A stretch of 63,734 nucleotides of DNA, filler included. It is 7 parts of 7 records of this genome, joined end to end, with 100 filler letters (N's around TTAATTAATTAA, not from the genome) between each part and the next. Parts side by side here need not be neighbours in the genome. Positions count along the whole stretch, not along the records: positions 22,351 to 40,415 come from SRR31156797_18194; 6 more parts are not named here. One strand, given 5' to 3'. Both the position numbers and the translations under genes were made by a program. Below are positions 24,498 through 40,115 of the stretch, in pieces (the first letter of the stretch is position 1; each line of letters opens with the position of its first letter). Below the pieces are notes generated by a model, which ran no database searches, was not told the origin of the DNA, and saw nothing but the letters and a program-made list of their open reading frames with translations.

Positions 24498-24793
24498 CAC
24501 CGAGAATCATTCATATCGAAGTACTCCATGAAGGCGCCCATTGAATTCCGTGTGAATACATGGCCAGTCTGGTCGAATCGGTGGTCGCTGGATACGGCGA
24601 AACGGTGCGATGGGAAAAGGTAGTTACCAAAGATCTTACAGGGGCGAAGCGTTTATTGACACTGTCAAAGGAATTGGGTCGTCCCGCACCGGTTCCCTCC
24701 ATATATGTGGATGGCAAGCTTGCTTTTGATAGTACCCCGGGAGGTGACGAACTCAAGGAATTCTTAGACAGACTGATAAATACCGATCCATGA
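24494..24793 (+). CDS. Thioredoxin-fold selenoprotein (UxxC), 99 aa; Sec at TGA 24542-24544
   Basis: ATG 24494 overlaps the upstream stop (ATGA); reads MTPRIIHIEVLHEGAH-TGA-IPCEYMASLV... in frame with ORF 24560-24793; TGA aligns with the first Cys of paralog CLPCLYM. Confidence 0.85.
24545..24578 (+). promoter_or_regulatory. Candidate bacterial SECIS element 1
   Basis: GGCCA-GTC-TGGTC hairpin (24562-24574) with a G-initiated loop 22 nt after UGA; ATTC/GAAT could form a lower stem. Weak stem. Confidence 0.4.
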
Positions 24794-24878
24794 TTGCCCA
24801 GCAATTTTTTGGACCATACCTGAAGAGACCACCGGAATCGAGACCCCAGCCCCCATAGTTGTTGAGATCATTTTGTAC

Positions 24879-24907
24879 TTGACCCAAACCGAAGGCCTCT
24901 CTATACT
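24879..24907 (+). promoter_or_regulatory. Sigma70-type promoter for the arnT block
   Basis: TTGACC-N17-TATACT. Confidence 0.6.
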
Positions 24908-24998
24908 TTGCGCTCGAAAGTTCACCTTCTTATCACCTATTGCCCCACCTTTCTATAGAAGGTGCGCTTAATTAAGGAATCGAATTTATTCTCCTCTC

Positions 24999-26663
24999 AT
25001 GAAAAAAGTTTCCATTACACTTTTTGTTCTTTTCGTATTTATCTATATCCTTCCCCTTGGTTTCCGACCTCTGACCATTCCGGATGAATCCCGGTATGGG
25101 GAGATCCCCAGGGAAATGTTGAATTCGGGAGATTGGGTGGTTCCCCGCCTGAACGGATTGAAATACTTTGAAAAACCCCCCTTTGGATACTGGGCGAATG
25201 CCGTTAGTATGGCCACGTTCGGTGAAAATGCCTTTGCCTTGCGGATACCATCGGCGCTGTCCGTAATGATTTCCGCCCTCATGATTTTTCTGCTGGTACG
25301 AAAATATTTACCAAGGGGGGCGGCCTCCGTCCTGGCCCCGGCCATCTTTTTAACCTCTCCTCTCGTGCTGGCCATAGGCCACATCAGTCTTCTGGACAGC
25401 CTGCTTTCCATGCTGTTAACCGGTTCTCTGGTTTGCTTCTTCTTTGCGCACATGGCTGAAAATATGCGGCGGAAGGCGCTTTTTCTCGCTTTCATGGGGG
25501 TATTCTGCGGACTGGCTTTTCTTACCAAGGGATTCCTGGCCTTCGCCGTACCGGTACTGGCGGTGGTGCCGTTTCTGCTCTGGGAGGGCCGTTATAAAGA
25601 TTTATTCAGAATACCATGGATTCCCATGATAACGGCCCTTGTGATCGTTTTGCCCTGGTCTCTGATGATCCATCTTCGCGAAGGGGATTTCTGGAACTAT
25701 TTTTTCTGGACGGAGCATGTGGCAAGATTTTTAGAACCGGTCCGGGGACAACATCCCAAGCCTTTTTGGTATTTTCTACCTGTCCTGGTGGGTGGTGCGC
25801 TGCCATGGATGGTTCAAAGTCCGGCTGCCATCCCCATGGTTCTCAAATTCCAAATGAAAAAACCGCTCATACGTTTTGCCATGTGCTGGTTCTTTTTCCC
25901 CTTTCTTTTTTTCTCCGTGTGCAGCGGTAAACTTATCCCGTATATCCTGCCGTGTTTTCCTCCCTTGGCAATGGTTTTTGCCATCGGTCTTGCCGGATAC
26001 TTTGAAGCCGGAAAAAAACGGGCTTTTTCCGTTTCCGCCTGGGCTCTGGCCATCTTTATCGGTCTCGGGGGTCTTTTTTTTCTGGTCTCCGGCCTAGTGC
26101 AACTGAACTGGGACGTCTTTGAGGCGACCAGGATTTATGATATTGACGAAAGGCGTAAATGGCTGCTGGGTTCCCTGGGGGCCCTTTTATGGGCTTTTCT
26201 GGTGATTTGGTCCACCCGGATGAAAGACTACCGGAAAAAATTGGCTTTTTACTGCTCCGCTTTCCTGGCGTTTTTTTTTATGGCGAATTTTGCCGTTCCC
26301 AACAGTGCCATGGATCGCAGAACGCCAGGAAAACTTCTTGAGCGCAATCTTTCAAGGGCGTCCCCCGATGCCATACTGGTATCCAATGACAATGTGATTC
26401 GTGCCGTCTGCTGGTTTTTCAAACGGGATGATGTGAAAGTACTGGAAAAAGCCGGCGAACTCACCTATGGTTTGAAACATGACCACAACAAACCGGTGAA
26501 ATTTCTGACTGTTGACGCGTTAAGGACAATAATCCGGGAAAACGAAGGGAAACGTCCGGTGATTTTGGTTTTGATCAGGGATCACCATGACAACTACAGG
26601 GACCACTTACCCGCTCCCATCTTTATGGATACCGATAACCATTTCATCTTTGCGGTCTATTAA
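24999..26663 (+). CDS. arnT: ArnT/GT83 family phospholipid-carrier-dependent glycosyltransferase
   Basis: PDESRYGEIPREM..SGDWVVPRLNGLKYFEKPP.GYW; FLTKGF; EH..RF; H..PFWYF; KLIPYILPCF.P. Confidence 0.85.
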   Translation: MKKVSITLFVLFVFIYILPLGFRPLTIPDESRYGEIPREMLNSGDWVVPRLNGLKYFEKPPFGYWANAVSMATFGENAFALRIPSALSVMISALMIFLLVRKYLPRGAASVLAPAIFLTSPLVLAIGHISLLDSLLSMLLTGSLVCFFFAHMAENMRRKALFLAFMGVFCGLAFLTKGFLAFAVPVLAVVPFLLWEGRYKDLFRIPWIPMITALVIVLPWSLMIHLREGDFWNYFFWTEHVARFLEPVRGQHPKPFWYFLPVLVGGALPWMVQSPAAIPMVLKFQMKKPLIRFAMCWFFFPFLFFSVCSGKLIPYILPCFPPLAMVFAIGLAGYFEAGKKRAFSVSAWALAIFIGLGGLFFLVSGLVQLNWDVFEATRIYDIDERRKWLLGSLGALLWAFLVIWSTRMKDYRKKLAFYCSAFLAFFFMANFAVPNSAMDRRTPGKLLERNLSRASPDAILVSNDNVIRAVCWFFKRDDVKVLEKAGELTYGLKHDHNKPVKFLTVDALRTIIRENEGKRPVILVLIRDHHDNYRDHLPAPIFMDTDNHFIFAVY

Positions 26664-26702
26664 GAATAAGGACGGCTGAAATTAAAACTGACTGATAACA
26701 CA

Positions 26703-27929
26703 ATGGAAATCGAGCTTCAACGAAAAATTGACAGGATCGCAGGCAAAGCAATTTGCCGACTGCTTTCCCTGTTTCCTCGAAAGAAAGATAACGCGGGGAT
26801 TACAACCTCATCGCCAAATATTCTGGTTATACTCCTCTCCGAAATGGGGAGCCTTGTGCTGGCCCACCCCATGTTCACATATTTGAAAAAAAATCATCCC
26901 GGCGGGGAAATCTTTGTACTGGTGTTTGAAAAGAACAGAGAATGCCTGGAAACCCTGAAGCTGGTTCCCAAAAGGAACATTTTGACAGTCAATGGGGATT
27001 CGTTCACGGCATTGGTAAAGGATAGTATCCGTTTCATATTCCGGATGCGAAAAGAAAAAATTCATGCGGTAATTGACTGTGAACTCTTTTCAAGGATCAG
27101 CAGCATTTACGCATTTCTAAGCGGTGCCGGGTTGCGTGTGGGATTTCATCCCCATACCCAGGAGGGCCTTTACAGGGGCGGTTTTATTAATCGGCCCGTT
27201 CTCTACAACCCCTACCGCCATATATCCAGACAGTTTGTGGCTTTGGCCCAGGCAACGGAAAATGGGAATGACTTCCCCATGGTAAAACGAAACGTGGATG
27301 CGGATATTTTTTGTATCCCAACCCTGAAGCCGGATGCGGATCAACAGGAAGACTTGGAGAACCGGCTGAAAAGCGATTTTCCGGAAACAATCGGAAAAGA
27401 ACTGGTCCTGCTTTATCCGGGGGGCGGCCTGCTTCCCATAAGAGCATGGCCTTTGAACAATTTTTGCCGAATTGCCATGAACCTGCTTGAAAAAGGGTAT
27501 ACCGTGGGTATTATCGGAATGAAAGAGGATGCACCCCTGGCGGAACTCATCTCGTCACGGTGTCAAAGCAAATATTGTATTGATCTAACCGGTTATACCA
27601 GAAACATCATGGAGTTGATCACTCTTTTTCATTTTGCATCCCTACTCATCACCAACGATGGGGGGCCTGGGCATTTTGCTTCGTTGACGCCGATTCCGTC
27701 CATAATTTTCTTCGGCCCGGAAACCCCGGATCTGTATGGTCCCTTAGGTGAAAAGGCTGTAAGTCTTTATGAACCATTGCCCTGTTCTCCTTGCCTTACC
27801 GCCTATAACCACAGAAAATCTCCCTGTGACGGGAACAACGTCTGCCTTGAAGCCATTGGCCCGGAAGAAGTGTTTGAAAAGGCCGGTGAATTGCTTAAAA
27901 GAAACAGCATTTCTCATATCATCTCATGA
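26703..27929 (+). CDS. Glycosyltransferase family 9 (heptosyltransferase-like)
   Basis: LSEMGSLVL, IDLTG, LITNDGGPGHFAS, FGPE.P, CSPC...C....C tail. Confidence 0.85.
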   Translation: MEIELQRKIDRIAGKAICRLLSLFPRKKDNAGITTSSPNILVILLSEMGSLVLAHPMFTYLKKNHPGGEIFVLVFEKNRECLETLKLVPKRNILTVNGDSFTALVKDSIRFIFRMRKEKIHAVIDCELFSRISSIYAFLSGAGLRVGFHPHTQEGLYRGGFINRPVLYNPYRHISRQFVALAQATENGNDFPMVKRNVDADIFCIPTLKPDADQQEDLENRLKSDFPETIGKELVLLYPGGGLLPIRAWPLNNFCRIAMNLLEKGYTVGIIGMKEDAPLAELISSRCQSKYCIDLTGYTRNIMELITLFHFASLLITNDGGPGHFASLTPIPSIIFFGPETPDLYGPLGEKAVSLYEPLPCSPCLTAYNHRKSPCDGNNVCLEAIGPEEVFEKAGELLKRNSISHIIS

Positions 27930-30079
27930 ACAGACCCCTGTATTTCAATCATTCAGCAATCTCGTGGAGCTGGAACCAGCGTTACCGCTTTTTCAAGTTC
28001 GGCATGGTGGGCGTCAGTGGTATCGTCATTAATCAGGCGGTCATCTGGATGTGTTACGCCCATGTGTTCACGACCGTTCAGAACCTTTCTTTACGTCTCA
28101 ACCTGTCCATGGCGGTCGGAATTTTGTTGAGCATGACCAACAATTTCCACTGGAACCGCCGGTGGACCTGGAAGGATCGCGAGCGTGCGCAAAAACTGCC
28201 CATTGTTCATCAGTACCTGCAGTACGCCGCTGCCAACTGGGTAGCCATCGTGATGCAGGTGACCATCACCAATCTGCTCACACGGTGGATGCCCTACCTG
28301 ATGGCCAATATGTTCGGCATCAGTGTGGCATGTGTGGCCAACTTTATTTTGAATGACCTGTGGACCTACCGCCATGTGAACACCGAGGGGATCAACCCCC
28401 AAAACAAAAACCTGGAGCGCGCGGTGCAGGCGGTGCCGCTGGCCATCAGCGGACTCATTTTCGCTTTGTGCACCTATCTGTATGGTCTGGCTTCTCTGCA
28501 CATTCTACGTAACGGGGATGAATTGGTGTACATGCACATCACGCGCGTGACCGGTATGGCCAAACAGTGGCTGCCCTTGCAGGGCATTCCGGGTATGCGA
28601 AACACCAAACCGCCTCTGCTGTTCTGGCAGGGGCTGGTGAGTACGGATTGGGGAAATCACTGGTCGGTGGTAGCGTTGCGCTGGCCCAGCGTGGTGTGGA
28701 CTTTCGGTACGGCGCTGCTCTGCGGCCTGCTCGGGTGGCGACTGTCCGGGCGTGATGTATTCAAGGGGGTGCTGGCGGCGCTTTTCTATCTGGCCTTTTT
28801 CAGCACCTACCGTTATGGACGGCCATATCTTACCAATCCACCTGAAACATTCTGGGTGTTCGCGTGCTTCTTCACCCTGCTGTGGTGGAAGCCGCGATCC
28901 TTCGATTCGCGATTCCTTTTCCCGACCATCCTGGGTGTGCTGGCAGGCATGGCGCTCTTGACCAAAAGTTTCGCCCAACTACTCCCCATCGGCGTGGGAT
29001 TGTCATGCTGGCACCTGCATGTGCGGGGGTGGGGGGGCCTGGCCTCATTCGTGCGTAAGTCATTTTCGGGGATCGTTTGGGCCGCTCTGGTTTCGCTGAG
29101 CATGTTCTCCTTGTGGTTCCTGTTGGATCCGGAACCCGGTGCCATCTGGCGCGAATTCGTGGTGGGGGAAAATGTGGGCAAAATGGCGGGCAGCGTGGGC
29201 TCCTGGTTCGCTGGGTTGTTGTGGAACGGCGACACTGTCTGGTCCCTTGCCGGCAGCTGGTTCTTTAACGCCGGTCTCTTGGCCTTTCCCTTGTTCAGTT
29301 TGATGGTGGAATGCTGGAAACACCGTCGCACCTTGTCCCATGAGGAGCGGCTGCTGTGGATCTGGGTGTTTGCCATTTTCATCGTCTTCTGCATTCCCAG
29401 TCAGCGGAGCGGACGTTATTTGCTGGAAGGCATGCCTGCGCTGGCGGTGTTGTTGGCGACGCGTTGCCATCATGTTGGGCGCTACGCCTTCGTGTTGACC
29501 CTGGCCGGCGTCATTGCGGTACTGCTGTCCCTGGGATGGATTTCATTCTTACTGGCCAACGAGGTAGGCATACAGGCTTTCCCCTGGTGGCATTTTCCCC
29601 TGGTGGTTGCTGCCATCGCCTTTGCCGTGACCGCCATCGCACGGCCGCCATGGACCGCCATGTGTGCACCAATTGCAGCACTGTCGGTATTCCTGGCGCT
29701 GTCCAGCTTTTTGTCTGTTTTTGATGCGCCGCTGGGAACTTACGACTCTGCTGTCGTCAAGGCCACCGCTGATCGTGTGGTGTGGGCACCGGAGAAATTT
29801 CGCTCGAAGGCGGAAAATCATCGCTTCCTGCTGCCTCTGGCGGTGGTGCGGGGCTACCCCGCCGGGGGGAATGTACCAGCCGATCGTGGGCCCGATGACT
29901 TGATGGTGATTCAGCGGCCCCTTGATGCCCCTGCGCCTGCCGGTGCCATGGGTAGCCGCATCAATATCACCAGTCGCCACAAGGCATGGCAGATCCGGGA
30001 AATGGCCACCGGCAATGTGAAGAAACACCTGTTCGCCCGTGAGTGGATCGTCCCCGCGGGTTCGTTGCCGGCGCGCTGA
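27926..30079 (+). CDS. GtrA-like flippase domain fused to ArnT/PMT-like GT-C glycosyltransferase
   Basis: N-terminal RFFKFGMVGVSG...NNFHWNRRWTW...NFILNDLWTY (GtrA); then NGDELVY, RNTKPPLLFWQ and many TMs. Confidence 0.75.
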   Translation: MNRPLYFNHSAISWSWNQRYRFFKFGMVGVSGIVINQAVIWMCYAHVFTTVQNLSLRLNLSMAVGILLSMTNNFHWNRRWTWKDRERAQKLPIVHQYLQYAAANWVAIVMQVTITNLLTRWMPYLMANMFGISVACVANFILNDLWTYRHVNTEGINPQNKNLERAVQAVPLAISGLIFALCTYLYGLASLHILRNGDELVYMHITRVTGMAKQWLPLQGIPGMRNTKPPLLFWQGLVSTDWGNHWSVVALRWPSVVWTFGTALLCGLLGWRLSGRDVFKGVLAALFYLAFFSTYRYGRPYLTNPPETFWVFACFFTLLWWKPRSFDSRFLFPTILGVLAGMALLTKSFAQLLPIGVGLSCWHLHVRGWGGLASFVRKSFSGIVWAALVSLSMFSLWFLLDPEPGAIWREFVVGENVGKMAGSVGSWFAGLLWNGDTVWSLAGSWFFNAGLLAFPLFSLMVECWKHRRTLSHEERLLWIWVFAIFIVFCIPSQRSGRYLLEGMPALAVLLATRCHHVGRYAFVLTLAGVIAVLLSLGWISFLLANEVGIQAFPWWHFPLVVAAIAFAVTAIARPPWTAMCAPIAALSVFLALSSFLSVFDAPLGTYDSAVVKATADRVVWAPEKFRSKAENHRFLLPLAVVRGYPAGGNVPADRGPDDLMVIQRPLDAPAPAGAMGSRINITSRHKAWQIREMATGNVKKHLFAREWIVPAGSLPAR

Positions 30080-30130
30080 AGGTGTGTTAGCCGCCGCTTT
30101 GGCCGAATCTTCATGATTCCTCCGAAAGAA

Positions 30131-30162
30131 TGTTTTCACCAACCTTTCCGGTGGTGAAAACA
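30131..30162 (+). terminator. Hairpin, probable terminator after the glycosylation block
   Basis: Perfect 11-bp inverted repeat TGTTTTCACCA-N10-TGGTGAAAACA. Confidence 0.5.
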
Positions 30163-30197
30163 ATTTGGAAAAGTTTGTTGTTTTGATTCCTTTTTGC

Positions 30198-30227
30198 TTG
30201 ACGATCGTGTGACAATTTTCATATGAC
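30198..30227 (+). promoter_or_regulatory. Promoter with overlapping Rex/CRP-like operator
   Basis: TTGACG (-35) followed by TCGTGTGACAATTTTCATATGA (TGTGA-N6-TCATA core). Confidence 0.4.
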
Positions 30228-30301
30228 CTTCAAAAATAGTTACGCTGCGAAAAAGGAATTTCTTATGATTAAGATACTTAAATGTGATTCTCAGGCTAAC
30301 C

Positions 30302-31249
30302 ATGAAACCCAAAAATGAGTTACATCGATTTATTTTTCATACCCGCGGGGTGTGCCCGCCCGAAATTCATTTTCAACTCAACCATTCAGTACTGGAGGAG
30401 GTCCGGTTTGTGGGCGGGGGATGCCCTGGAAACGCTCAGTTGGTCTCCAGACTCATCAAGGGGCGGACTGTGGATCATATCCTTCCCCTGTTGGAAGGCA
30501 TTGAATGTCGCGAACAAACGTCCTGTGCGGATCAGCTTGCAGATGCCCTGGAATCCGCCCTAAGTGGAACTCTCTTGCCGGCGGATACCGTGCGGTTCAT
30601 GGATGATCAGCCCCCTCGGGGGAGAGTCGGCCTCCTGGGTGTTCTGAATGGGAATCCGGATATTTTAGAAAAAATCATTTCGGGTATGAAATCCCGAAAT
30701 GTAGAGACCGCCTATTGTGTTGGTAATTTTACGGGAAAAATAACGACCGACCCGGATGTTATCCGGTTGCTCCGGCGTGATAAGAAGGTGGTCTGTATTC
30801 TGGGGGAAAGGGACTGGTCATATGCCGATTATCATGAAAGCGGAGTTTCGTCTTTGACGCCCAGAGATCGCGACTGGGTCGCCATGCTTCCGCAGGTCAT
30901 CACATTTCGGTTGGGAAACCGAAACGCGGTCGCATTTTATGGGGATTATCTTCAGAATTTGCCGGGCTTTTCGGATTTCGCGCCATACGCCCTCGAAATC
31001 AATATGGTTTGTGGCCTGACGGATTTCATGCGGGACGAAACGGTTTTCCCCGCACTTGAGGCCATGATCCCGCAATTTCAGGCCGACCTCATTTTGTTCG
31101 GCCAAAGAAGAGATTGGGGGCACTGGTGTATCGGTGAAAAGGACTTTTTAAGTGTGGGGCGCTCTGAAGAGAACGGCAATGCAAAATGGGGAATTCTGGA
31201 AACCGCATCCGATGGTATCCGGTTCGAGATAATTGAAGAGCCCCCATGA
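30302..31249 (+). CDS. TIGR03905/TSCPD-like 4-Cys domain fused to degenerate metallophosphoesterase fold
   Basis: TRGVC...VRFVGGGCPGN...LEGIEC...TSCADQLA; C-terminal part follows the YfcE-like layout but with GVLNGN, GNFTG, GERD, FYG, GQRR at the metal-ligand motifs. Confidence 0.7.
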   Translation: MKPKNELHRFIFHTRGVCPPEIHFQLNHSVLEEVRFVGGGCPGNAQLVSRLIKGRTVDHILPLLEGIECREQTSCADQLADALESALSGTLLPADTVRFMDDQPPRGRVGLLGVLNGNPDILEKIISGMKSRNVETAYCVGNFTGKITTDPDVIRLLRRDKKVVCILGERDWSYADYHESGVSSLTPRDRDWVAMLPQVITFRLGNRNAVAFYGDYLQNLPGFSDFAPYALEINMVCGLTDFMRDETVFPALEAMIPQFQADLILFGQRRDWGHWCIGEKDFLSVGRSEENGNAKWGILETASDGIRFEIIEEPP

Positions 31250-31277
31250 GATTAGAAATAACCATGAGGAGAACCGC

Positions 31278-31562
31278 ATGACAAAGAAGGTGCTCGTGGA
31301 TGTACTCTTGACCGATTTCAACCAGTGAATTGCGTGTGTCTATATGGCGGAATCGGTAAAGGTTTTACCGAAAGAAATCCAAGATATTATAGAGGTTAAT
31401 GAATGGGATATGCGAACCCGTGAAGGTGTGGAACGTTTCAGAGAACTGAAAGCGAAATCCCTCCCGAGTGTCGCACTGGATGGCGATCTCGTCTATGAAT
31501 CCATTATTCCGGGCCAGGAAGAGTTGATTGAAGAACTCCAACGGCGGTACCGGGAAAAATAG
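31278..31562 (+). CDS. Thioredoxin-fold selenoprotein (UxxC), 94 aa; Sec at TGA 31326-31328
   Basis: SD GAGGAG 31266-31271, ATG 31278; MTKKVLVDVLLTDFNQ-TGA-IACVYMAESV... in frame with ORF 31344-31562; cis-Pro segment SLPSVALDGDLVYESIIPG. Confidence 0.88.
31353..31371 (+). promoter_or_regulatory. Candidate bacterial SECIS element 2
   Basis: 8-bp perfect stem TCGGTAAA-GGT-TTTACCGA with a G-rich loop 32 nt downstream of the in-frame UGA. Confidence 0.6.
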
Positions 31563-31574
31563 GGAACAGCCAAT

Positions 31575-32555
31575 ATGCATTTGGAAGAGGTCAATATCGA
31601 GGGGTTTAAATCGTTTTCCGAAACCACAAACATGGGCTTTCAGCCGGGTATAGGGGTGATTATCGGAAACAACGGCGCGGGCAAATCCAACATCCTGGAT
31701 GCCATCGTCTGGGCCATGGGAGAAGATGATATGGCAAGGCTCAGATGCTACGGCCGCGATGAACTGTTTTTCAGCGGCAGCAACGCCTATTCACCCGCCG
31801 ATAGAGTACGGGTAGAGCTGTTGTTCAAAGAAGATTCCACCGACGACAAACCCGTTTTTAAATTATCGAGGGAGATATCCTGTAACGGACGGAGTCGGTT
31901 CCGGATTGATGATAAGCCCTGCAGCAGGATTGATTTTTCAAAAAAGCTGGCGTCACTTCAGCTCGGGCATTCCTTGAAAACCATTATTCGGCAGGAAGAG
32001 ATCAACGATCTCATCCTGCTTTCCCCACAGAAGCGTTTCTCCTCTATCCAGGGTCTCCTTGAAATGGAAACGGGAGCAGAGCTGAGCAAACATATCCGGG
32101 AGAATATCACACCCCTTTTTCAACGTTATATGTCTTATCTCATGCCCCAAGCGGAAGTTCGGATGGAGGTCCTGTCACAAAACGGCAAGCCCGGAATTCA
32201 CATAGGGGTAACCCTGCCGGGGAACAGGATCAGGCGGGCACACCAGCTTTCCGGAGGAGAAAAGGCGATCACCAGTTTAGCGTTCAAACTGGCGGTTTTC
32301 CATATGCTCGACAGCCAGTTTTACCTTCTCGATGAAGTGGAGCCTTCCCTTGATTATACCAATCACAAATCTATGCAGGCGTTTTTGAAAGATGTGGCGG
32401 CTGATAAGCAGCTTATTATGATTACCCACCTGCGCAGTACCATCGAACTGGCAGATACCGTTCATGGGGTCAGAACCCGATTCGATGGATCTTCTTTCAT
32501 GAAATTTTATTTTCTCATGGATGAACGGTTGCTGCGGCTTTATAAATGTTGCTGA
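31575..32555 (+). CDS. Head-only SMC-family ABC ATPase (no long coiled coil or hinge), C-terminal Cys-Cys
   Basis: GFKSF, Walker A GNNGAGKSNILDAI, Q-loop IIRQ, signature LSGGEK, Walker B/D-loop LLDEVEPSLD, ITH; only 326 aa. Confidence 0.85.
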   Translation: MHLEEVNIEGFKSFSETTNMGFQPGIGVIIGNNGAGKSNILDAIVWAMGEDDMARLRCYGRDELFFSGSNAYSPADRVRVELLFKEDSTDDKPVFKLSREISCNGRSRFRIDDKPCSRIDFSKKLASLQLGHSLKTIIRQEEINDLILLSPQKRFSSIQGLLEMETGAELSKHIRENITPLFQRYMSYLMPQAEVRMEVLSQNGKPGIHIGVTLPGNRIRRAHQLSGGEKAITSLAFKLAVFHMLDSQFYLLDEVEPSLDYTNHKSMQAFLKDVAADKQLIMITHLRSTIELADTVHGVRTRFDGSSFMKFYFLMDERLLRLYKCC

Positions 32556-32590
32556 AACCTGGCTCAACAGGCATATAAAAGGGCGAAATA

Positions 32591-33349
32591 ATGATTGATT
32601 TTAAAATGCTGGAAGATGCGTCGGAAAAAACTGAAAAGTCGTTTCAAATGCTGTTGAAAACCTACGAAAAACTTCCCGAGACCATTTGTGGTTGCGACAA
32701 TATCGGTGTCTGTTGTGTGTCCTTGCCTGAAATGACGGTTCTGGAAGCCCTATCGTGGATCGGAACCATTACGGAATTGCCTCCCGGTGAACGGACGGTA
32801 CTTTTGCGAAAATTCGTGTATTTCTATCTGACCAATCCCATCCGCCGCCCCGGTTGCCCCTTTCGCAGGGAAGGATCCTGTACCATCTATTCCCGAAGAC
32901 CGTTTGCATGCAGGGCGTACGGTTTGTGGAGCCGGGAAAACGGAGCGGAACAGACCAATAAAAACCGTGAACTTCAGAAAACCATGCTTGAAATGTGGAA
33001 ACAGTTTGGCGTGACCATCCCGGCGAAATGCCTGGTAACCGAGATGGATTACTGCCGTGAGGTGACAACCCGTGAATCGTCGTCCATATCGGACAACGAT
33101 CTGCTCAAGGTTTTGGAGGAGGTATATCTGCTCAGCACACCCGTGGCCGACCTGCAGCAATCGTTTGAGAACGAGTATCAGTCAGATTTCAGCTTTCTCA
33201 TCACATCCCTGATTTTGGGTCAGAAAAAAGCATTCCTAGGCAAATATGCCGTTGTAAAAGAAATGGTCACCAAAGGATCGGAAACGCGCCTTGACAAATT
33301 TTTGAAAGCAGCGTCTTCGGAGGCATGGCAACTTAATTTCCCCAAATGA
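32591..33349 (+). CDS. YkgJ/CxxCxxCC family cysteine-cluster protein
   Basis: ICGCDNIGVCC, GCPF, CTIYSRRPFACRAYG. Confidence 0.8.
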   Translation: MIDFKMLEDASEKTEKSFQMLLKTYEKLPETICGCDNIGVCCVSLPEMTVLEALSWIGTITELPPGERTVLLRKFVYFYLTNPIRRPGCPFRREGSCTIYSRRPFACRAYGLWSRENGAEQTNKNRELQKTMLEMWKQFGVTIPAKCLVTEMDYCREVTTRESSSISDNDLLKVLEEVYLLSTPVADLQQSFENEYQSDFSFLITSLILGQKKAFLGKYAVVKEMVTKGSETRLDKFLKAASSEAWQLNFPK

Positions 33350-33536
33350 TCTGCCGGTTAACTCCGCTTTTCCTCTTTTCTAATAAACCATCTTAATTTC
33401 CGAAAAAATCAGCCAATGGGTTATGGAAAATCAACCTTTGGACTATATTCAATTAATGATGCTTCCGATAAAAACAGCCATCTACTAACCACCAGTTTGT
33501 TAAAGGCGATAATTTCAAACCACAGAGGAGGGCAGC

Positions 33537-34487
33537 ATGTTTCAGTTAAGCACGGAGCAAAAAGTGTGTGAGATAGGCGGTGTGAAGTTTGGTGGCCAGC
33601 CGGGCGATTACCCTTGTGTATGTGTCAGCTCGATTTTTCAGAAGGGCGACAAGGTTTTTACCGGGAAACGTAAGGAAGGTTTTGATGAAGCGCGGGCCGA
33701 AATGCTTTTGAAAACCCAGGACAAGTATACGGAAGATTGCGGTGTCCCCGGGATGGCGGATATCGTCGCCAATACCGGCAAGGAGTTTCAATCTTTTATT
33801 GATTTTGTCGTGGAAAAAAGCGACATGCCCTTTTGTATCGACGCCTGGGTTATGAAACCCAAACTGGAAGGCGCGGCTTATTGTGCCGAAAAAGGTCTGC
33901 TGGACCGGATGTTCTACAACAGCCTGACCGTCTGGGAAGCGGATCTGGAAACCGAGATTAAGGAAATTGCCGATATCGGCGTTAAGCATGTGCTTCTGGT
34001 GTCCTTTGACCAGGAAGACCAGATGCCTTCCGGACGTGTGACCGGCACACAGAAACTTCTGGATGCCATTGAGAAAGTAGGCGCCGAATTCGAGAGCATC
34101 TTTGTGGACAGTTCCGTCATGAATGGCCCGGCTACGGCCTTTTGCGGCGTTGCCAACAAGATGATCAAGGAAAAATGGGGATTTCCCACCGCGAGCGCAC
34201 CCAGCAACGGAAGCTACATGGATTTGAAACGCTTTAAGGAGATGTGGGATTTCAAAGGATGGTCTTCCACGGATGCTGCTTTGGAAGCGCTTTCCGCCTT
34301 CAATTATCACGACATGATCTTTTCCGGTCCCATGGCCGGCGCAACACGTATCCTGCCCGCAGTGGCTGAGGCTGAGGCATTTCTGGCAACCATGGTATTC
34401 GCCGAGACCAAAAAGCTGCCTGTTTGTGAAACGCATCCTTTGTACAAGCTCTTCCCGGATTTCGTGGAGCAACTGAAGGGAATGTAG
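33537..34487 (+). CDS. MtrH/MtgA-like methylcorrinoid:tetrahydrofolate(pterin) methyltransferase
   Basis: MF...EQKV.EIGGVKFGGQPG.YP...SIF..GDK; PFCID; YNS; KEKWGFPT.SAP.N; SD GAGGAGG. Confidence 0.85.
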   Translation: MFQLSTEQKVCEIGGVKFGGQPGDYPCVCVSSIFQKGDKVFTGKRKEGFDEARAEMLLKTQDKYTEDCGVPGMADIVANTGKEFQSFIDFVVEKSDMPFCIDAWVMKPKLEGAAYCAEKGLLDRMFYNSLTVWEADLETEIKEIADIGVKHVLLVSFDQEDQMPSGRVTGTQKLLDAIEKVGAEFESIFVDSSVMNGPATAFCGVANKMIKEKWGFPTASAPSNGSYMDLKRFKEMWDFKGWSSTDAALEALSAFNYHDMIFSGPMAGATRILPAVAEAEAFLATMVFAETKKLPVCETHPLYKLFPDFVEQLKGM

Positions 34488-34578
34488 TCATCAGGCATCA
34501 TCAAAAAGGCAAGTGAAAAGCCAGGAAACAGATGAAGATAAGGAACCAAACAACAAAAATTTCGAAAGGAGCTCAAGG

Positions 34579-35631
34579 ATGGCGGAACTTACACCCAAAG
34601 AACGCGTGATGCGTTTGCTCAGAAAAGAACCCATTGACATCATGCCGTTTTTCAGTGGTATGGGGATGGTGGTCATGCCGGGGATCAAAGAGGCGGGTTT
34701 CAACTTCCCCACGATTCATACCAGTGCGGAAAGAATGGCCTGGTCGGCAATCCATTCGGCAAGGCTGATGAATTTTGACTGCGTGGTGATTCCCTATGAC
34801 ATGACCATGGAGTCCGAGGCCATGGGTAACACCATCAGTCTGTACGAAGAATCCGAGGATATTCTCTATCCCACGATTCCCAACAAAATGTGGTCTACCC
34901 TGGACGAAGTGGTTGTCCCGGACGATATTCTGGAGCGGGGTCGTCTTCCGATCCTCAAGGATGCCATCAAGATTATCAAAGAGGAAGCTCCTGATCTTCC
35001 CATCGGATGCTGGCAGCTCGGTCCTTTTACCCAGTCCGGTCAGATTCTGGAACTTGACCTGATGTTGAAAGGCGTTTTCAAACAGAAGGAAAAAGTAGGA
35101 GAAGTTCTTGACCTCATGACCGATATGATCATCAAGATCGGTAATTATCTCCAGGAAAGCGGATGTGATTATATCGTCTTGAGGGAGCCCGGTGTTGCGG
35201 CGGATCTCCTGAGCCCCAGAACCTTCAAGGAATTCATTCAACCCAGGCTGACGAAGATTTTGAATGCCTGGGAATCCCCCAAACTGCTCCACATCTGCGG
35301 TCAAACGGAACCGCTGCTCCCCATGATGGCGCAATGTGGCGCCGACGGTATTACCGTTGACATCAAGTGTGATGTGAGGAAGGGTCGTGAGATATTGGGC
35401 CCGGATGTCCTCTTTATGGGCAACATTGACACCTATACCATGACCTGCGATCCAAAAACACCGGTACAAGCGTCCATCGACCATATCAAAGATATGATCG
35501 ACGGCGGTGTCGATGCCGTCATGCCCGGCTGCGATCTCTGGCCGGACATTAAGGAAGAGAATATGAAAGCCTGTGTGGATACATGCCACGAGTATGGTAC
35601 TAAGCCCAGCCCGGCGGTGGGTCGCCTTTAG
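34579..35631 (+). CDS. MtaA/CmuA (UroD-fold) zinc methyltransferase
   Basis: MAELTPKER, LGPFT, Zn-ligand pattern LLHICG ... MPGCDL; ATG 34579 behind AAGGAG (ORF track starts at 34513). Confidence 0.85.
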   Translation: MAELTPKERVMRLLRKEPIDIMPFFSGMGMVVMPGIKEAGFNFPTIHTSAERMAWSAIHSARLMNFDCVVIPYDMTMESEAMGNTISLYEESEDILYPTIPNKMWSTLDEVVVPDDILERGRLPILKDAIKIIKEEAPDLPIGCWQLGPFTQSGQILELDLMLKGVFKQKEKVGEVLDLMTDMIIKIGNYLQESGCDYIVLREPGVAADLLSPRTFKEFIQPRLTKILNAWESPKLLHICGQTEPLLPMMAQCGADGITVDIKCDVRKGREILGPDVLFMGNIDTYTMTCDPKTPVQASIDHIKDMIDGGVDAVMPGCDLWPDIKEENMKACVDTCHEYGTKPSPAVGRL

Positions 35632-35696
35632 GGATAAGTCGTAACGGTAGCAGTTTTATTTTTAAATGAAGTTACTTTGAAAAGGAGAGAAAAAAC

Positions 35697-36365
35697 ATGG
35701 CAACACAAGAAGAACTGTTAGAAAAATTGAAAGAAGGCGTTATCGAGTATGAAGATGATACGGTCAAAGAGGCTTCACAGCAGTGGCTTGATGAGGGATA
35801 TGTAGCCCTGGACGGTATTATGGACGGCCTGGCCGCCGGTATGGAAGTTGTTGGCGATCTCTATGACAAAAATGAGTATTTCGTGCCTGAAGTTCTGATG
35901 TGTGCCGATGCCCTGTATGGCGGCCTTGATATCCTGCGTCCGCACGTACCTAAAGATTCAGAAGGCGTCAATGCACAGGTGGTTATCGGAAGTATTCAGG
36001 GCGATGTCCATGATATCGGTAAAAACCTTGTGAAGATGATGTTTGACGTTGCCGGTTGGGAAGTGCATGACCTGGGTCGTGACGTACCGCTGGAAAACTT
36101 CGTGGAAAAACAGCTTAAGACCGATTCCGAAGTGGTGGCCATGTCTGCCATGATGACCACGACCATGCTGGGAATGAAAAAGGTTATCAACATGATCAAG
36201 GAGAAGAATCCCGATGTGGCGATCATGCTGGGCGGCGCACCCGTAACCAAGGACGTGGCCAACCTTTTCGGCGCTGACGGTTACGCTGAATCCGCTGGTA
36301 ACGCCGTATCCGAAGGTATCAAAATGATCGGTCGTCTGCGTGAAATGCGGGCCAAAGAAAAATAA
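35697..36365 (+). CDS. Methyltransferase cognate corrinoid protein
   Basis: GLAAGM..VG.LY...EYFVPE cap domain; GDVHDIGKN (DxHxxG); SAMMTTT; MLGGAP. Confidence 0.93.
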   Translation: MATQEELLEKLKEGVIEYEDDTVKEASQQWLDEGYVALDGIMDGLAAGMEVVGDLYDKNEYFVPEVLMCADALYGGLDILRPHVPKDSEGVNAQVVIGSIQGDVHDIGKNLVKMMFDVAGWEVHDLGRDVPLENFVEKQLKTDSEVVAMSAMMTTTMLGMKKVINMIKEKNPDVAIMLGGAPVTKDVANLFGADGYAESAGNAVSEGIKMIGRLREMRAKEK

Positions 36366-36409
36366 TAGAGGGAAAATCAAGGGAAACTTTTCCTTAGAAA
36401 ACTTAATCC

Positions 36410-36446
36410 CCCCCTATCAGAAGCTTTTATGGCTTCTGATAGAGGG
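36410..36446 (+). terminator. Hairpin after the corrinoid protein gene
   Basis: CTATCAGAAGC-TTTTATG-GCTTCTGATAG perfect 11-bp stem. Confidence 0.55.
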
Positions 36447-36752
36447 TGTTTCGAATCAGAAAATGTTTTTAACAAATAACGGTATCTCAAAATAGAGACC
36501 TAACGATTACGCCGTCTGACTGTTTTATATTATGAGTGTATTCGAGGCACGATGATACCTCGGGTTCGCTAGGATTTATCCCATTTAGACTGAGGTCTGC
36601 TGTAAGAAAGCTAATTTTTGTTGCTTTTCATTAGGGCTGGATTGCTAACTTTTATTTCCGAGAAAAAACGGAACCACCCGGCGGCCGCTATTTATTGACT
36701 GGCATATTCGTGTAGATCGCATCATAATTTTATTTGAGGAGGATTATATCGC

Positions 36753-38807
36753 ATGAGTGACGAAAAGGTCATGGTCATTTTTCAGCCTTCGGGACGAAGA
36801 GGTGAAGTTCCTAAAGGCGTTAATATTATTGAGGCTTCTCGGCTTCTGGGTGTTGATATCGAGGCGCTTTGCGGAGAGAAGAAAGTTTGCGGAAAATGCA
36901 TTGTGCGGGTTGAGGAAGGCCGTTTTGAAAAATATGGCATCACCTCCAGCATGGACCATTGTTCCCCGTGGGCCGTAGAAGAAGAAAAATTCATCAATCA
37001 GGAACGCCAAGAGAAGGGTTTTCGTCTGGGTTGTGTGGCCACCATTGAAGACGACGTCCTGGTGTTTGTTCCGGAAGAATCGAGAGCCGGAAAACAGGTG
37101 GTCAGCAAGGCGGCCCGCGATATCGATATTGAATTCAATCCGGCTATTAAGCTCTACACCGTGCAGGTTGACAAACCCACATTTGAAGACCCCACCGGCG
37201 ATTTTGAAAGGGTCTGCAATGCATTGGAGCAGAACTATGCGCTCACGGATCTGACCATTGATATCGAAACCCTGCGTGAGCTTCCCGACGCCCTTCGTAA
37301 CGGAAAATGGGAGTGTACGGTGAGTGTCTGGAACGATAAGGAAATCATTCGGGTCCGCTCCGGTAAGGTGGAGCACGCCTACGGCATGGCCATTGATGTG
37401 GGGACCACCACGGTAGCGGGATATTTTTGTGATCTCACCACCATGGAAGTTATCGACACCGTATCCATGATGAACCCCCAGTGTAAATACGGTGAAGACG
37501 TCATGGCAAGGATTACCTATCACATGATGACAGAAGGCGGGTTGAAGCGCATGAGCGACGACATCATCGAGGGTCTGAATGAACTCCTCGCAAAAGCCAT
37601 CAAACAGACCTTCCCGCCCATGAAGAAGAAAAAAGGGAAAAAGGGCGAAAAAGCCGAGATGGTGGAAGTCCCGGAAGAGGGCAAGACATATCTCCGCCTT
37701 AAAATGGAAGATATCGAAGACATTACCATCGGTTTTAATACGGCCATGCACCATATCCTTCTCGGGCTTAACCCCGAGTATGTGGGCCTCGCGCCTTTCC
37801 CACCGGTCATTCACCACAGTATGAATATCAGGGCCAGGGATCTGGGTGTTAAGATCAACCCGTCTTCATACATGTTCGTCCTTCCCAACGAGGCCGGATT
37901 TGTGGGCGCTGACAACGTTGGCGTGCTCATTGCTGAAGCCCCCTACAAGGGCGAAGAAAATCAGTTAATCATCGATATCGGTACCAACGGCGAGCTGGTG
38001 TTGGGTAACCGCCACAAACTGATATCTTCCTCTTGCGCCACCGGTCCCGCCCTTGAGGGCGCCCAGTTGGCTTACGGCATGCGTGCGGCGCCAGGCGCCA
38101 TCGAGCGCATCACCATTGACCCCGATACCAAGGAAGTGGATTACAAGGTTATCGGTCGGGATGCCTTTAGGAAATTTTCCGATCCCAAGGAGATGGGTGT
38201 TAAAGGGATTTGCGGTTCCGGTATTCTGGATGTGCTGGCCGAACTCTACAGTTCCGGTGTCATCACCAAAACCGGCGCTTTCGCCAAAAAGAAACTGAAG
38301 GACCATCCACGTTTCCGCAAGAACGCTGATACGAAACAGCCTGAATTTGTTCTGGCCTGGGCTGAGGAATCGAGCATCGACCAGGATATCGTGATCACCC
38401 AGAAGGATGTCCGACAGATCCAGCTTGCCAAGGGCGCGCTCTATGCCGGGTGTAAACTGATGGTCAAACGGATGGGTCTTGACAAGGTGGATACGGTGAA
38501 GATTGCCGGTGCCTTCGGAACCCATGTGGATCGCGAAAAGGCTCTGACCATGGGTCTGTTCCCCGACTGCGAAATCGAGATGATCAAGGGGATTGGTAAC
38601 GCGGCTGGTGATGGTTGCCGCGCAGCACTTCTGAATACCAAAAAACGGACTGAAGCGGACTGGTGTTCAAGAAACGTGGAATATGTTGAACTGACCGTTG
38701 AACCTACCTTTGAGCAGGACTTTATGGAAGCAATGCAGCTTCCCCATATGACGGATAAATTCCCCCATCTGGAAGGGATTGTCCGTGACGAGATCTTAAA
38801 CCAGTAA
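36753..38807 (+). CDS. ASKHA/DUF4445 reductive activator of corrinoid enzymes (RACE) with N-terminal 2Fe-2S domain
   Basis: CGEKKVCGKC...RLGC; AIDVGTTT; NPQ..YGEDVMARI; GFVGAD; IDIGTNGE; GICGSG; QLAKGA; AGAFG; GNAAG.G. Confidence 0.92.
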   Translation: MSDEKVMVIFQPSGRRGEVPKGVNIIEASRLLGVDIEALCGEKKVCGKCIVRVEEGRFEKYGITSSMDHCSPWAVEEEKFINQERQEKGFRLGCVATIEDDVLVFVPEESRAGKQVVSKAARDIDIEFNPAIKLYTVQVDKPTFEDPTGDFERVCNALEQNYALTDLTIDIETLRELPDALRNGKWECTVSVWNDKEIIRVRSGKVEHAYGMAIDVGTTTVAGYFCDLTTMEVIDTVSMMNPQCKYGEDVMARITYHMMTEGGLKRMSDDIIEGLNELLAKAIKQTFPPMKKKKGKKGEKAEMVEVPEEGKTYLRLKMEDIEDITIGFNTAMHHILLGLNPEYVGLAPFPPVIHHSMNIRARDLGVKINPSSYMFVLPNEAGFVGADNVGVLIAEAPYKGEENQLIIDIGTNGELVLGNRHKLISSSCATGPALEGAQLAYGMRAAPGAIERITIDPDTKEVDYKVIGRDAFRKFSDPKEMGVKGICGSGILDVLAELYSSGVITKTGAFAKKKLKDHPRFRKNADTKQPEFVLAWAEESSIDQDIVITQKDVRQIQLAKGALYAGCKLMVKRMGLDKVDTVKIAGAFGTHVDREKALTMGLFPDCEIEMIKGIGNAAGDGCRAALLNTKKRTEADWCSRNVEYVELTVEPTFEQDFMEAMQLPHMTDKFPHLEGIVRDEILNQ

Positions 38808-38830
38808 CGGGTGAGAATTTGAATCAAACC

Positions 38831-39154
38831 ATGAATGACGCATGTATTACCGTGGATCCCGGAGTGTGTGGTTTTACATGCGTCATCCGGGCGCGGCAAA
38901 CGGAAAAGAGATCGGTTGCCATTGAAATCGTAGGTTCTGAGTGCAAACAGATTAAGCGATTTGCCGGCCGTCTCGAAACCGTTTCTTTACGGGAATTGTT
39001 CATGCCTTTGACCAGCAACCCGGTCTACAAGGCAGCTCAGGCATCGGGTTGCCATGCCTCATGCGCAATCCCTTCCGCGGTCTTGAAGGCCGCGGAGGTT
39101 GCCATGGGCATGGCCGTTGCCCGTCCGGTTAGTTTCGATTTTGATTGTGAATAG
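38831..39154 (+). CDS. DUF6951-like small Cys-rich protein
   Basis: VDPGVCGF, SEC..I, CHASC.IP..VLKA.EV..G. Confidence 0.65.
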   Translation: MNDACITVDPGVCGFTCVIRARQTEKRSVAIEIVGSECKQIKRFAGRLETVSLRELFMPLTSNPVYKAAQASGCHASCAIPSAVLKAAEVAMGMAVARPVSFDFDCE

Positions 39155-39166
39155 GGGAGGGGTTAA

Positions 39167-39763
39167 ATGCATGTTCCGAAAGTAGTACCCTTCAGGAATG
39201 AAGCGGGCATCTCTCAGACGTTTTTGAGAAGTTTGGAGGAAAACGGAAAAAAATACGGATTAACCTCTATTCTCCCCTTTTCCACTGAAAAGATCAATGT
39301 TGCCGAATGGGTTCATCTTAAGTGCCGTTACGGCTGTCACAATTACAATACCAACTGGTGCTGTCCGCCGGCCACACCGAAACCCGATAAGGTGCGGTCT
39401 ATTCTGGCCGAATATAAAAGAGCACTATTGCTTGAGGGCAGCAAAAGCTGTAAGGATTTTTACCTGAACAATGGCCGAAAAAGAGCGGGGCAGGTACGGT
39501 GCTGGAAAGGAACTTTGAGCATTGAGCGCATGCTGTTCCTTGAAGGTTATTATAAAACCTTCAGCCTTGTGGGAGAGTGCTGCGCATTGTGTAAAGAATG
39601 TGCATTCCCTGAAAGTTGCCGGTTCCCCATGGAAAAACGACCTTCAGTGGAATCATTTTCCATTGATGTCATCGGGACCTTGAAAAATCTGGGCACATCG
39701 CCAACCGTAGCAACCGATAAATCGGGTACTTACAATTACTACGGTATTATTCTTCTTGAATGA
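39167..39763 (+). CDS. DUF2284 family metal-binding protein
   Basis: KCRYGC..Y..NWCCPP; C..C..C...C.FP...RPSVE...IDV. Confidence 0.85.
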   Translation: MHVPKVVPFRNEAGISQTFLRSLEENGKKYGLTSILPFSTEKINVAEWVHLKCRYGCHNYNTNWCCPPATPKPDKVRSILAEYKRALLLEGSKSCKDFYLNNGRKRAGQVRCWKGTLSIERMLFLEGYYKTFSLVGECCALCKECAFPESCRFPMEKRPSVESFSIDVIGTLKNLGTSPTVATDKSGTYNYYGIILLE

Positions 39764-39893
39764 TAAATGTGTTACACCATTCCCTCCCAAATAAAGTTTT
39801 TTCTTTTATTTTAAATATTCGATAATTTATTTATTCAAATTCATTATTTTGCTTGACTTGATAATGAATGTTCCTTTAACATATTTTCTTGAA

Positions 39894-40054: not shown

Positions 40055-40115
40055 GAGCACGATACCCTTTCGAGGACAAAAAGGGCGCCGTATGACTCTG
40101 AGGATAAAAATGGGT

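Follow-up and report, generated by a model that had tools for sequence, protein, structure and literature searches.

A natural head-only SMC-type ATPase ending in Cys-Cys, encoded next to a thioredoxin-like selenoprotein

The stretch of DNA analysed here (the window; 63,734 nucleotides, nt) carries a gene at 31575..32555 on the plus strand, an open reading frame (ORF) of 326 amino acids (aa) with an ATG start and a TGA stop, which, judging from its sequence, is a natural head-only SMC-type ABC ATPase with intact catalytic motifs. The encoded protein retains both lobes of an SMC head and lacks the coiled coil and hinge. It belongs to a conserved family that, as its sequences indicate, descends from bacterial SMC, carries a family-specific tail terminating in two adjacent cysteines, and is encoded directly behind a thioredoxin-like protein with selenocysteine (Sec). 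As the window consists of joined contigs, the true neighbours of the head gene are the genes in piece 22351-40415 only, the source of which is SRR31156797_18194.

Anatomy, conservation, and descent of the head protein

The protein is composed of an N lobe (approximately residues 1-150), a helical hairpin linker (approximately 151-189), a C lobe (approximately 190-312), and a tail (313-326). Every SMC-head motif that had been quoted for the two lobes in an earlier note on this DNA is present in the translation of 31575-32555: EGFKSF (residues 9-14), GAGKSNILDAIVWAMGE (34-50), FSGS (66-69), LSGGEKA (225-231), LDEVEPSLDYTN (252-263), and QLIMITH (279-285). On the plus strand, the Walker A motif GNNGAGKSN (residues 31-39) is encoded at 31665..31691, while the part from the signature LSGGEK (residues 225-230) to the Walker B motif and the catalytic Glu occupies 32247..32336 (YLLDEVE, residues 250-256, ends at 32342). 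The conserved Arg57, which we take to be the SMC 'arginine finger' position, is immediately followed by Cys58 (31746..31748, plus strand), a residue invariant in the family alignment.

A single Pfam SMC_N (PF02463) match extends over residues 3-302 and covers profile positions 2-214 of 220; its score of 158 bits (E 3e-46) exceeds the gathering threshold of 40. NCBIfam SMC_prok_B (TIGR02168) matches the protein in two stretches: the N lobe corresponds to model positions 2-157 of 1181, and the second stretch, in the head gene of the relative G001, to positions 1057-1168. Because the lobes match as separate stretches, about 900 SMC model positions, i.e., the coiled coil and hinge, are missing. 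The score with this model is 200.8 bits, under the cut-off of 567.35, and the second score in the test with TIGR02168 and TIGR02169 is 149.9 against 729.4. No hinge family is found among the nine Pfam matches of the protein, which is too short to leave space for a hinge. In an AlphaFold2 (AF2) monomer model built from 20 family members (mean predicted local distance difference test score, pLDDT, 76.8), the only connection between the lobes is a hairpin, about 40 residues long, formed by helices 151-161 and 167-189. The two-stretch match and this hairpin bear out the proposal that a short helical linker stands in place of the coiled coil and hinge.

SMC heads are at the top of the Foldseek results for this model: the best match is 5h68_B (E 1.7e-24, template modelling score, TM, 0.75), from a Geobacillus head dimer in the ATP-engaged state, followed by 4i99, 1e69, and the heads of cohesin SMC1A, with a TM of 0.71-0.76 across SMC heads. 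Residues 1-305 align with residues 1-299 of 322 in the Thermotoga linked head construct 1e69 (E 6.6e-43), and the Geobacillus head construct 5h68 is alignable through residue 316. The C-terminal end, FYFLMDERLLRLYKCC (residues 311-326, last letters YKCC), comprises a family-specific tail (32511..32552, plus strand) in which a short predicted helix precedes Cys325-Cys326 (codons 32547-32552, then TGA). The extra tail proposed earlier is thus real in part: only approximately DERLLRLYKCC is counted as extra, because the preceding FYFLM aligns with the last β-strand of SMC heads (5h68 through residue 316) and is an ordinary element of them. Residues 300-326 have a pLDDT below 50 in the monomer model, and what follows the strand is probably a flexible terminal vicinal Cys pair.

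A search over 5.8 billion proteins gave 868 matches at E ≤ 0.001 among 3298 candidates, of which the best 120 cluster representatives were analysed. Originating from metagenome-assembled genomes (MAGs) of Deltaproteobacteria/Desulfobacterales, they are 324-368 aa long, 64-88% identical to the query at 99-100% coverage, and named only 'AAA family ATPase', 'chromosome segregation ATPase', or 'chromosome segregation protein' in the databases. Homologs of the same length are therefore plentiful, and the frame is clean and not decayed, as had been supposed. All 120 representatives end in Cys-Cys (118 with YKCC, one with YRCC, and one with FKCC), and Walker A, the signature, and the H-loop are each present in all of them; R-x-R-C is found in 119, strict Walker B in 116, and the strict Q-loop in 114. 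Among 136 full-length SMC representatives, none has a terminal Cys-Cys, two have any Cys among the last ten residues, and the residue after the conserved Arg is Gly, Ser, or Ala in 129 and Cys in one.

An exhaustive search over representatives clustered at 50% identity shows the family to be compact: head-length clusters rank first (P0121, P0122, and P0124 with 62%, 48%, and 41% identity, respectively, plus some fragments), after which the score falls to 177.8 bits for P0128 (approximately 620 aa) and 172.5 bits for full-length SMCs (34-39% identity over the lobes). P0124 ends in ...YRCCG. Regarding the fragments, a heavy-metal-associated (HMA) domain considered at the N-terminus of P0132 was dropped, as Pfam finds none there, and P0125, which combines a solute-binding-protein-like N-terminus with a C lobe, is a probable chimeric fragment.

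Of 401 genomes sampled from the class of G001, 27 have the head gene, each as a single copy, and a sample of 401 genomes from the phylum contains it in 10 (G001 included); the named records that carry it are Desulfobacterales-type MAGs. For the examination of gene neighbourhoods, 30 loci from 30 genomes were used (L001, L002, L004, L005, and L115-L140), or 31 with the window. The head gene reads ...KCC followed by a stop in 28 of the 30 loci, the exceptions being L140, cut by a contig end, and L128. At the latter locus (G121:C23), an in-frame TGA is observed at codon 184 of the head gene, and the RamA-type activase matches in three frame-shifted pieces; these oddities could mean that the cluster is decaying or could stem from errors in sequencing, a second Sec codon being a less likely cause.

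A quick maximum-likelihood tree of the head lobes (60 rows, 277 columns) places all 13 head-only rows in one group, with a support of 99 in the Shimodaira-Hasegawa-like approximate likelihood ratio test (SH-aLRT), and this group is sister to two proteins of approximately 620 aa ending in Cys-Cys (97 SH-aLRT). The pair stands on a long stem (0.83) among bacterial SMCs and not beside the SMC of G001 itself, with the RecN of G001 as a distant outgroup. Since the tree is quick, is rooted on that one very long RecN branch with long-branch warnings, and includes only the best-scoring representatives as SMC rows, the donor SMC lineage cannot be named from it. The complete chromosome of G001 encodes, in addition to the head-only gene, a normal SMC (an open frame of 1238 aa, 1009.9 bits, above the cut-off), so that a separate full-length smc, which the earlier note had suggested confirming in the bin, exists in this relative. 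The head protein is not a chromosomal SMC, given that a normal SMC co-exists with it in G001 and that its family is not sister to that SMC.

The relatives of approximately 620 aa (P0128, P0140, and a gene at L143:10001-11830) terminate in CC or CCC, preceded by a long stretch of low complexity. They match SMC_N only in Pfam, have no hinge, contain a coiled-coil-like insert of approximately 200 residues, and share the helix after the last strand with the head-only family. The L143 gene, situated in a high-GC locus, is 61% identical to P0128 and ends in ...GKTCC. The position of the Cys-Cys after a long spacer in these sisters fits a swinging arm.

Seven contigs of a bin are joined in the window by six N44-TTAATTAATTAA-N44 spacers (10039-10138, 15265-15364, 22251-22350, 40416-40515, 51193-51292, and 57368-57467), each with stops in all frames. 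This composition would favour reading the gene as an smc that decayed or was misassembled, through an internal deletion or in a chimeric contig; such an origin has a probability of practically nil. The same architecture recurs in each of the best 120 matches with its motifs conserved, the gene is carried at 30 independent genome loci, and the contig joins are 9 kb and 8 kb distant from it. An independent assembly, likely of the same sample, covers 30284-33349 with 0 differences, and the lobe junction also lies within diverged contigs of other studies (e.g., X2 record 10 at 31691-32378). The artefact is thus refuted by the homologs and by the independent contigs that span the junction. One join truncates a gene on either side, a sugar-kinase-like one that ends at 22250 and a CobW-like one at 22351.

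The selenoprotein partner and other neighbouring genes

The gene directly upstream of the head gene (31278..31562, plus strand) encodes, in read-through translation, a thioredoxin-like selenoprotein of 94 aa with the motif Q-U-I-A-C (...TDFNQ-U-IAC...), the Sec TGA being located at 31326-31328. Its stop at 31562 and its single read-through TGA agree with the earlier description of a selenoprotein gene 12 nt before the head gene. The Sec-thioredoxin is found directly upstream in all 30 loci, where it ends 12-17 nt before the head gene and contains TGA in 30 cases and a Cys codon in none. The NCBIfam model NF047660 ('HUIPC motif thioredoxin-like (seleno)protein') matches it with E 2e-13 and 50.2 bits; as this score is under the cut-off of 105, the protein is taken as a relative and probably not a member of that family; UxxC is present. 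The NF047660 family is reportedly described by Haft and Tolstoy (2025).

A candidate bacterial selenocysteine insertion sequence (SECIS) hairpin, with a 7-bp stem and a GGU loop, is located at 31354..31370 on the plus strand, 28 nt after the UGA, according to the fold of 19 aligned sequences. Its stem is nearly invariant in nucleotides across these sequences and thus offers no covariation; a hairpin at this place is consistent with a bacterial SECIS. The 45 nt behind the Sec codon are nearly invariant (window 31329-31370 and 18 loci), while the proteins differ elsewhere, and this stretch holds the hairpin CGGUAAA-GGU-UUUACCG, a likely SECIS element. A second thioredoxin-like paralogue is observed at 24144-24497 in the window and in L004, L125, L127, L129, L130, L137, L139, and L140. 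It is 27-47% identical to the Sec-thioredoxin, has C-L-P-C in the window, and is often encoded behind a CobW-like GTPase and a thioredoxin-reductase-like gene.

Two positions upstream of the head gene, a two-domain protein is encoded (30284..31249, plus strand) in which an N-terminal 4-Cys TSCPD domain is followed by a C-terminal domain with a calcineurin-like metallophosphoesterase fold. The TSCPD domain passes both curated cut-offs (PF12637, E 7.5e-15; TIGR03905, 78.5 bits against 67.7), whereas the C-terminal 220 residues have no Pfam match and were assigned from an AF2 model (pLDDT 88.2) by Foldseek, which matches 2gju (E 4.6e-10), SapH 3qfm, 3rqz, Vps29, lambda phosphatase, LpxH, and MJ0936. 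Mapping of the metal-ligand motifs on the family alignment and by profile-to-sequence alignment shows the canonical ligands replaced: GDxHG by G-x-L-x-G, GD by C-x-G-N, GNHD by G-E-x-D, and GHxH by G-Q. The 'GD' position is taken by the nearly invariant Cys145, giving C-x-G-N as in the non-catalytic scaffold Vps29; judging from these residues, the protein is probably no phosphoesterase. It is encoded upstream of the head gene in 25 of the 30 loci. The TSCPD protein is found in 23 of the 401 genomes of the class: both genes are present in 22 of them, TSCPD only in one, and the head gene only in five further genomes, counts that lack phylogenetic independence. Comparison of the TSCPD profile with IscU/NifU scaffolds gave non-significant matches (E 0.23-0.73), which were not used. 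Complex prediction of the head protein with the TSCPD protein, made without alignments, yielded interaction prediction scores from aligned errors (ipSAE) of 0.02 and 0.01 (mark 0.34) and provides no evidence either way.

The genes of piece 22351-40415 described here are all on the plus strand. Its 5' portion encodes a CobW/COG0523-type GTPase (22351-23010; Pfam cobW/CobW_C), the 5' end of which is cut by the contig join, a thioredoxin-reductase-like flavoprotein (23063-23995; Pfam Pyr_redox_2), and the CxxC thioredoxin-like protein mentioned above. The corresponding ORF clusters are found in 25 of the 31 loci (c2), in 8 loci (c12), and in 6 loci (c19), respectively; all cluster counts are lower bounds, as greedy ORF picking sometimes kept an antisense frame. 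In the other loci, the CobW-type GTPase is often directly downstream on the opposite strand. The Cys-cluster gene reported to come next after the head gene is confirmed as a Cys-rich ORF (32591..33349, plus strand; 252 aa), weakly CxxCxxCC/YkgJ-like with a PF03692 match below the cut-off (E 0.0011; 20 bits against 23). Its homologue is present in 12 of the 30 loci, directly downstream in 11 and upstream in one. It is followed by a Pfam-assigned corrinoid methyltransferase set, consisting of an MtrH-like protein (33537-34487), a URO-D/MtaA-like protein (34513-35631), a B12-binding corrinoid protein (35697-36365), and a RACo/RamA-type reductive activase (36753-38807), and by DUF6951 (38819-39154; cluster c28, at least 3 of 31 loci) and the predicted metal-binding DUF2284 (39167-39763; cluster c20, at least 5 of 31).

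The statement that the head gene sits inside a metabolic operon holds for this contig; across the relatives, the constant unit is the Sec-thioredoxin and the head gene only. When the methyltransferase set is counted as present with at least one of MtrH, URO-D, the corrinoid protein, and RamA within 10 kb, it is found in 22 of the 30 loci, 2-10 kb from the head gene (two of these matches are only 30-31% identical), and not in 8. Other recurrent ORF clusters among the 31 loci are a PAS histidine kinase (at least 14), a LuxR-type regulator (at least 9), and a CobO-like adenosyltransferase (at least 8).

Additional recurrent neighbours, named by eye from representative sequences, are observed 2-6 kb downstream of the head gene in L001, L122, L123, L131, L132, L136, and others. 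They include a glutamate-synthase-small-subunit-like Fe-S flavoprotein of approximately 650 aa (c16) and, as clusters c4 and c10, a PAS histidine kinase with a Cys-rich N-terminus and its accompanying LuxR-type regulator. Clusters c11, c14, and c15 represent a CobO-like corrinoid adenosyltransferase, an FNR-like reductase, and a DUF1638-like protein, respectively. Three glycosyltransferase-type membrane genes are located at 24999-30079 of the window, where they separate the CobW, thioredoxin-reductase, and thioredoxin-like genes from the cassette with the head gene, encoding proteins of 554 aa (PMT/GT39-like), 408 aa, and 717 aa (the last with a richer GC content of 0.577). The 408- and 717-aa proteins, the two that were queried, have no counterpart in the 30 related loci, and this block therefore looks like an insertion into the island.

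Possible function and alternative explanations

ATP is known to close two ABC or SMC heads into a dimer. The reading favoured here, tentatively and at somewhat less than an even chance, is that the head protein is a nucleotide-gated soluble homodimer switch of the ABC type, derived from bacterial SMC, whose flexible Cys-Cys arms are tended by the Sec-thioredoxin and serve to bind a thiophilic ligand or relay it. The protein has lost the coiled coil and hinge and would no longer work on chromosomes. Two heads would sandwich two ATP molecules by means of Walker A, the Q-loop, the signature, the Walker B Glu, the D-loop, and the H-loop, and closure might gather both flexible Cys-Cys-COOH arms, perhaps with Cys58 beside Arg57, into a multi-thiolate site. 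Candidate ligands for such a site are soft metals or metalloids, selenium species, and labile metal centres; hydrolysis of ATP would then open the dimer and the ligand would be handed on. The Sec-thioredoxin might keep the vicinal Cys residues reduced or resolve S-S, Se-S, and metal adducts, with reducing power potentially supplied by the thioredoxin-reductase/thioredoxin pair of the same contig. In concert with the CobW-type GTPase and the Cys-rich scaffold proteins, the whole module may serve or protect the corrinoid methyltransferase system. The idea put forward in the earlier note, an ATP-driven dimer switch or a metallo/redox chaperone, is consistent with the Cys-Cys end, the Sec-thioredoxin, the CobW-type GTPase, and the Cys-rich neighbours.

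Several points weigh against this proposal. That the protein dimerises, hydrolyses ATP, binds a ligand, interacts with the Sec-thioredoxin, and is connected with methyl transfer is in each case inferred. The placement of the tail relative to the dimer axis depends on a monomer model of low confidence in that region, and the Cys pairs could equally hold a bridging Fe-S cluster. In P0122, a diverged relative, the last letters are ...YKCF, which leaves one Cys only. Among the sister proteins, the L143 gene has a LysR regulator and serA/ilvC/ilvN/ilvB-like genes for neighbours, and thioredoxin, TSCPD, and corrinoid genes are all missing from its surroundings; the Cys-Cys end therefore appears older than the partnership and may serve another purpose. 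Finally, the link to methyl transfer is positional only, and the 8 loci with no methyltransferase gene within 10 kb include four with short flanks.

A more specific version, considered unlikely, would make the protein an SMC-derived metallo- or seleno-chaperone: the ATP-closed dimer, with four terminal thiolates kept reduced by the Sec-thioredoxin, would capture the product of a corrinoid-dependent demethylation. This product might be a selenium compound (selenide or methylselenol) or a soft metal or metalloid set free from an organometal, and it would be passed on safely, e.g., to selenophosphate synthesis in selenoprotein-rich sulfate reducers. Corrinoid methyltransferase clusters in anaerobes are proposed to salvage methyl-selenium in a preprint (PMC10418091). 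If true, the protein would be the first SMC-derived metallo- or seleno-chaperone, its head turned from a DNA clamp into a clamp for small ligands.

The four tail cysteines could instead bridge a [4Fe-4S] or [2Fe-2S] cluster in an ATP-coupled electron transfer system, in which ATP would lower the potential of the cluster or dock it, e.g., to deliver low-potential electrons to an inactive Co(II) corrinoid or to a cluster protein. Bridging clusters have precedents in the nitrogenase Fe protein, Nbp35/ApbC, and the dehydratase activators. Features that could be brought into line with this explanation are the invariance of the terminal Cys pair, the dimer that ATP is expected to induce, neighbours rich in Fe-S or Cys proteins, a corrinoid system that needs reductive activation, and the faint, non-significant matches of the TSCPD profile to IscU/NifU (E 0.23-0.73). 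It is nevertheless judged quite improbable: the gene cluster already has its own ATP-dependent activase of the RACo/RamA type, a selenol/thiol oxidoreductase partner suits disulfide or adduct chemistry better, and adjacent Cys-Cys would be an unusual set of cluster ligands. A role still exerted on DNA, either as a decoy or regulator of full-length SMC heads or as a mini Rad50/SbcC-like ATPase acting with the upstream metallophosphoesterase-fold protein, is regarded as very improbable, even though the closest relatives in sequence and fold are true SMC heads (34-39% identity), Arg55 and Arg57 are retained, and the gene two positions upstream shares the Mre11/SbcD superfamily fold. The phosphoesterase domain is akin to the small YfcE/Vps29 type and not to Mre11, and it lacks the canonical ligands (GN for GD, GE-x-D for GNHD, GQ for GH, no D-x-H), a loss that makes an Mre11-Rad50-like reading of the pair unattractive. 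Moreover, the head protein has neither a coiled-coil neck for a kleisin nor a zinc hook, its partners are redox, metal, and corrinoid genes and not DNA genes, and the family is not sister to the SMC of its host lineage.

Compact ATPases of this superfamily also act in anti-phage defence (MAD3, OLD/Gabija GajA, and Septu PtuA), and the PADLOC model mad3 does match the head protein (E 1.5e-38, 131 bits), with the GajA, AriA, and PtuA models matching its N-terminal P-loop region. The SMC models score higher (200.8 bits), however, and PADLOC gives no match for the two flanking proteins. The named ORF clusters contain no Toprim or other nuclease (most ORFs of those loci are unannotated), the neighbourhood is conserved and metabolic over 30 genomes as opposed to a variable island, and the selenoprotein partner has no counterpart in those systems, which leaves a defence function with a very slim chance. 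That the protein is the cytoplasmic ATPase of an ABC-type transporter or export system is scarcely credible. It would account for a weak ABC_tran match (E 3.3e-06) and for the many ABC transporter models that match the signature/Walker B region; these reflect the generic ABC core, however, SMC-specific models score far higher, and no permease gene recurs beside the head gene in the ORF clusters of the 31 loci.

Relation to known SMC-like and Cys-Cys-ended systems

No dedicated Pfam or NCBIfam model matches the head family in the libraries scanned (for NCBIfam, among the best 25 of 106 matches). Full-text literature searches brought up no paper on the family, and none on TSCPD together with a selenoprotein; Haft and Gwadz (2023) and Haft and Tolstoy (2025) may treat the thioredoxin-like selenoproteins and their neighbours. 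SMC proteins are defined by a long coiled coil and a hinge with which DNA is entrapped and extruded; the present family has shed both. As its lineage is nested in bacterial SMCs, the SMC head appears re-usable as a stand-alone ATP switch outside chromosome biology, and a natural minimal head would be useful for structural studies of head engagement. The current names ('chromosome segregation' or 'AAA family ATPase') mislead the metabolic reconstruction of sulfate-reducing Desulfobacterota. The family suggests that an ATP-dependent step, as yet undescribed, helps to maintain corrinoid methyl-transfer systems or to handle selenium or metals, and the thioredoxin, always with selenocysteine, would be a ready partner of the head protein in it.

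With bacterial SMC (TIGR02168) and the constructs 1e69, 5h68, and 4i99, the protein shares the lobes, the ABC motifs, and the Arg, and its length and topology are those of the linked constructs made for crystallography. In contrast to bacterial SMC, it has no coiled coil, hinge, or kleisin neck, adds the tail and Cys58, and is encoded with redox, metal, and corrinoid genes beside a separate normal SMC. ScpA and ScpB are absent from the annotated recurrent neighbour clusters, though no search was aimed at either. The head protein is under the cut-offs of RecF (TIGR00611, 44.4 against 172) and RecN (TIGR00634, 51 against 407.85), and Rad50 models reach at most 66.9 bits against cut-offs of at least 700, with no zinc-hook coiled coil present. 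The CC-ended SMC-like proteins of approximately 620 aa have the helix after the strand and the terminal Cys pair in common with it, but they keep the insert of approximately 200 residues and the low-complexity spacer, and the one locus seen is without Sec-thioredoxin, TSCPD, and corrinoid genes.

SufC (of SufBC2D) is likewise a soluble ABC ATPase without a transporter, the ATP-driven dimerisation of which remodels a Cys-rich scaffold in cofactor assembly; it belongs to the transporter-type branch of ABC proteins and not to SMC, and has neither a Cys-Cys tail nor a selenoprotein partner. C-terminal Cys-Cys arms are known from MerA and HgcB. A terminal Cys-Cys or Cys-Sec marks the Cys-Cys-COOH proteins (SaoC, NF040734); the head protein has the former, and no Sao model occurs among the best 25 of its 106 NCBIfam matches or among all three matches of the thioredoxin. 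According to a 2026 review (PMC13188914), the Sec-assisted organometallic (SAO) system (SaoC, SaoT) has a vicinal Cys pair at a protein end alongside a thioredoxin-like selenoprotein with UxxC, in methyl or organometal chemistry. The Cys-Cys-COOH together with a UxxC selenoprotein is thus a likeness between the two, the difference being that the pair of the head family is carried by an ABC ATPase.

RecF is a known SMC/Rad50-family ATPase without a coiled coil. MAD3, OLD, GajA, and PtuA are also compact ABC ATPases of this family that lack a long coiled coil, but they pair with Toprim or other nucleases in defence operons, whereas the head gene is found with a Sec-thioredoxin and Cys-rich proteins, and the Cys-Cys tail is a feature of the head family and not of theirs. 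For MAD3, a published account (PMC13662399) describes a solved head-to-head dimer with two nucleotides, the nearest folds of which are Geobacillus SMC, Rad50, and PtuA. ATPases of the SMC/Rad50 type without a coiled coil (RecF, MAD3, OLD, GajA, and PtuA) are therefore already known; what is new is a lineage within the bacterial SMCs that lacks the coiled coil and hinge, carries an invariant Cys-Cys end and Cys58, and is always paired with a selenoprotein among redox, metal, and corrinoid genes.

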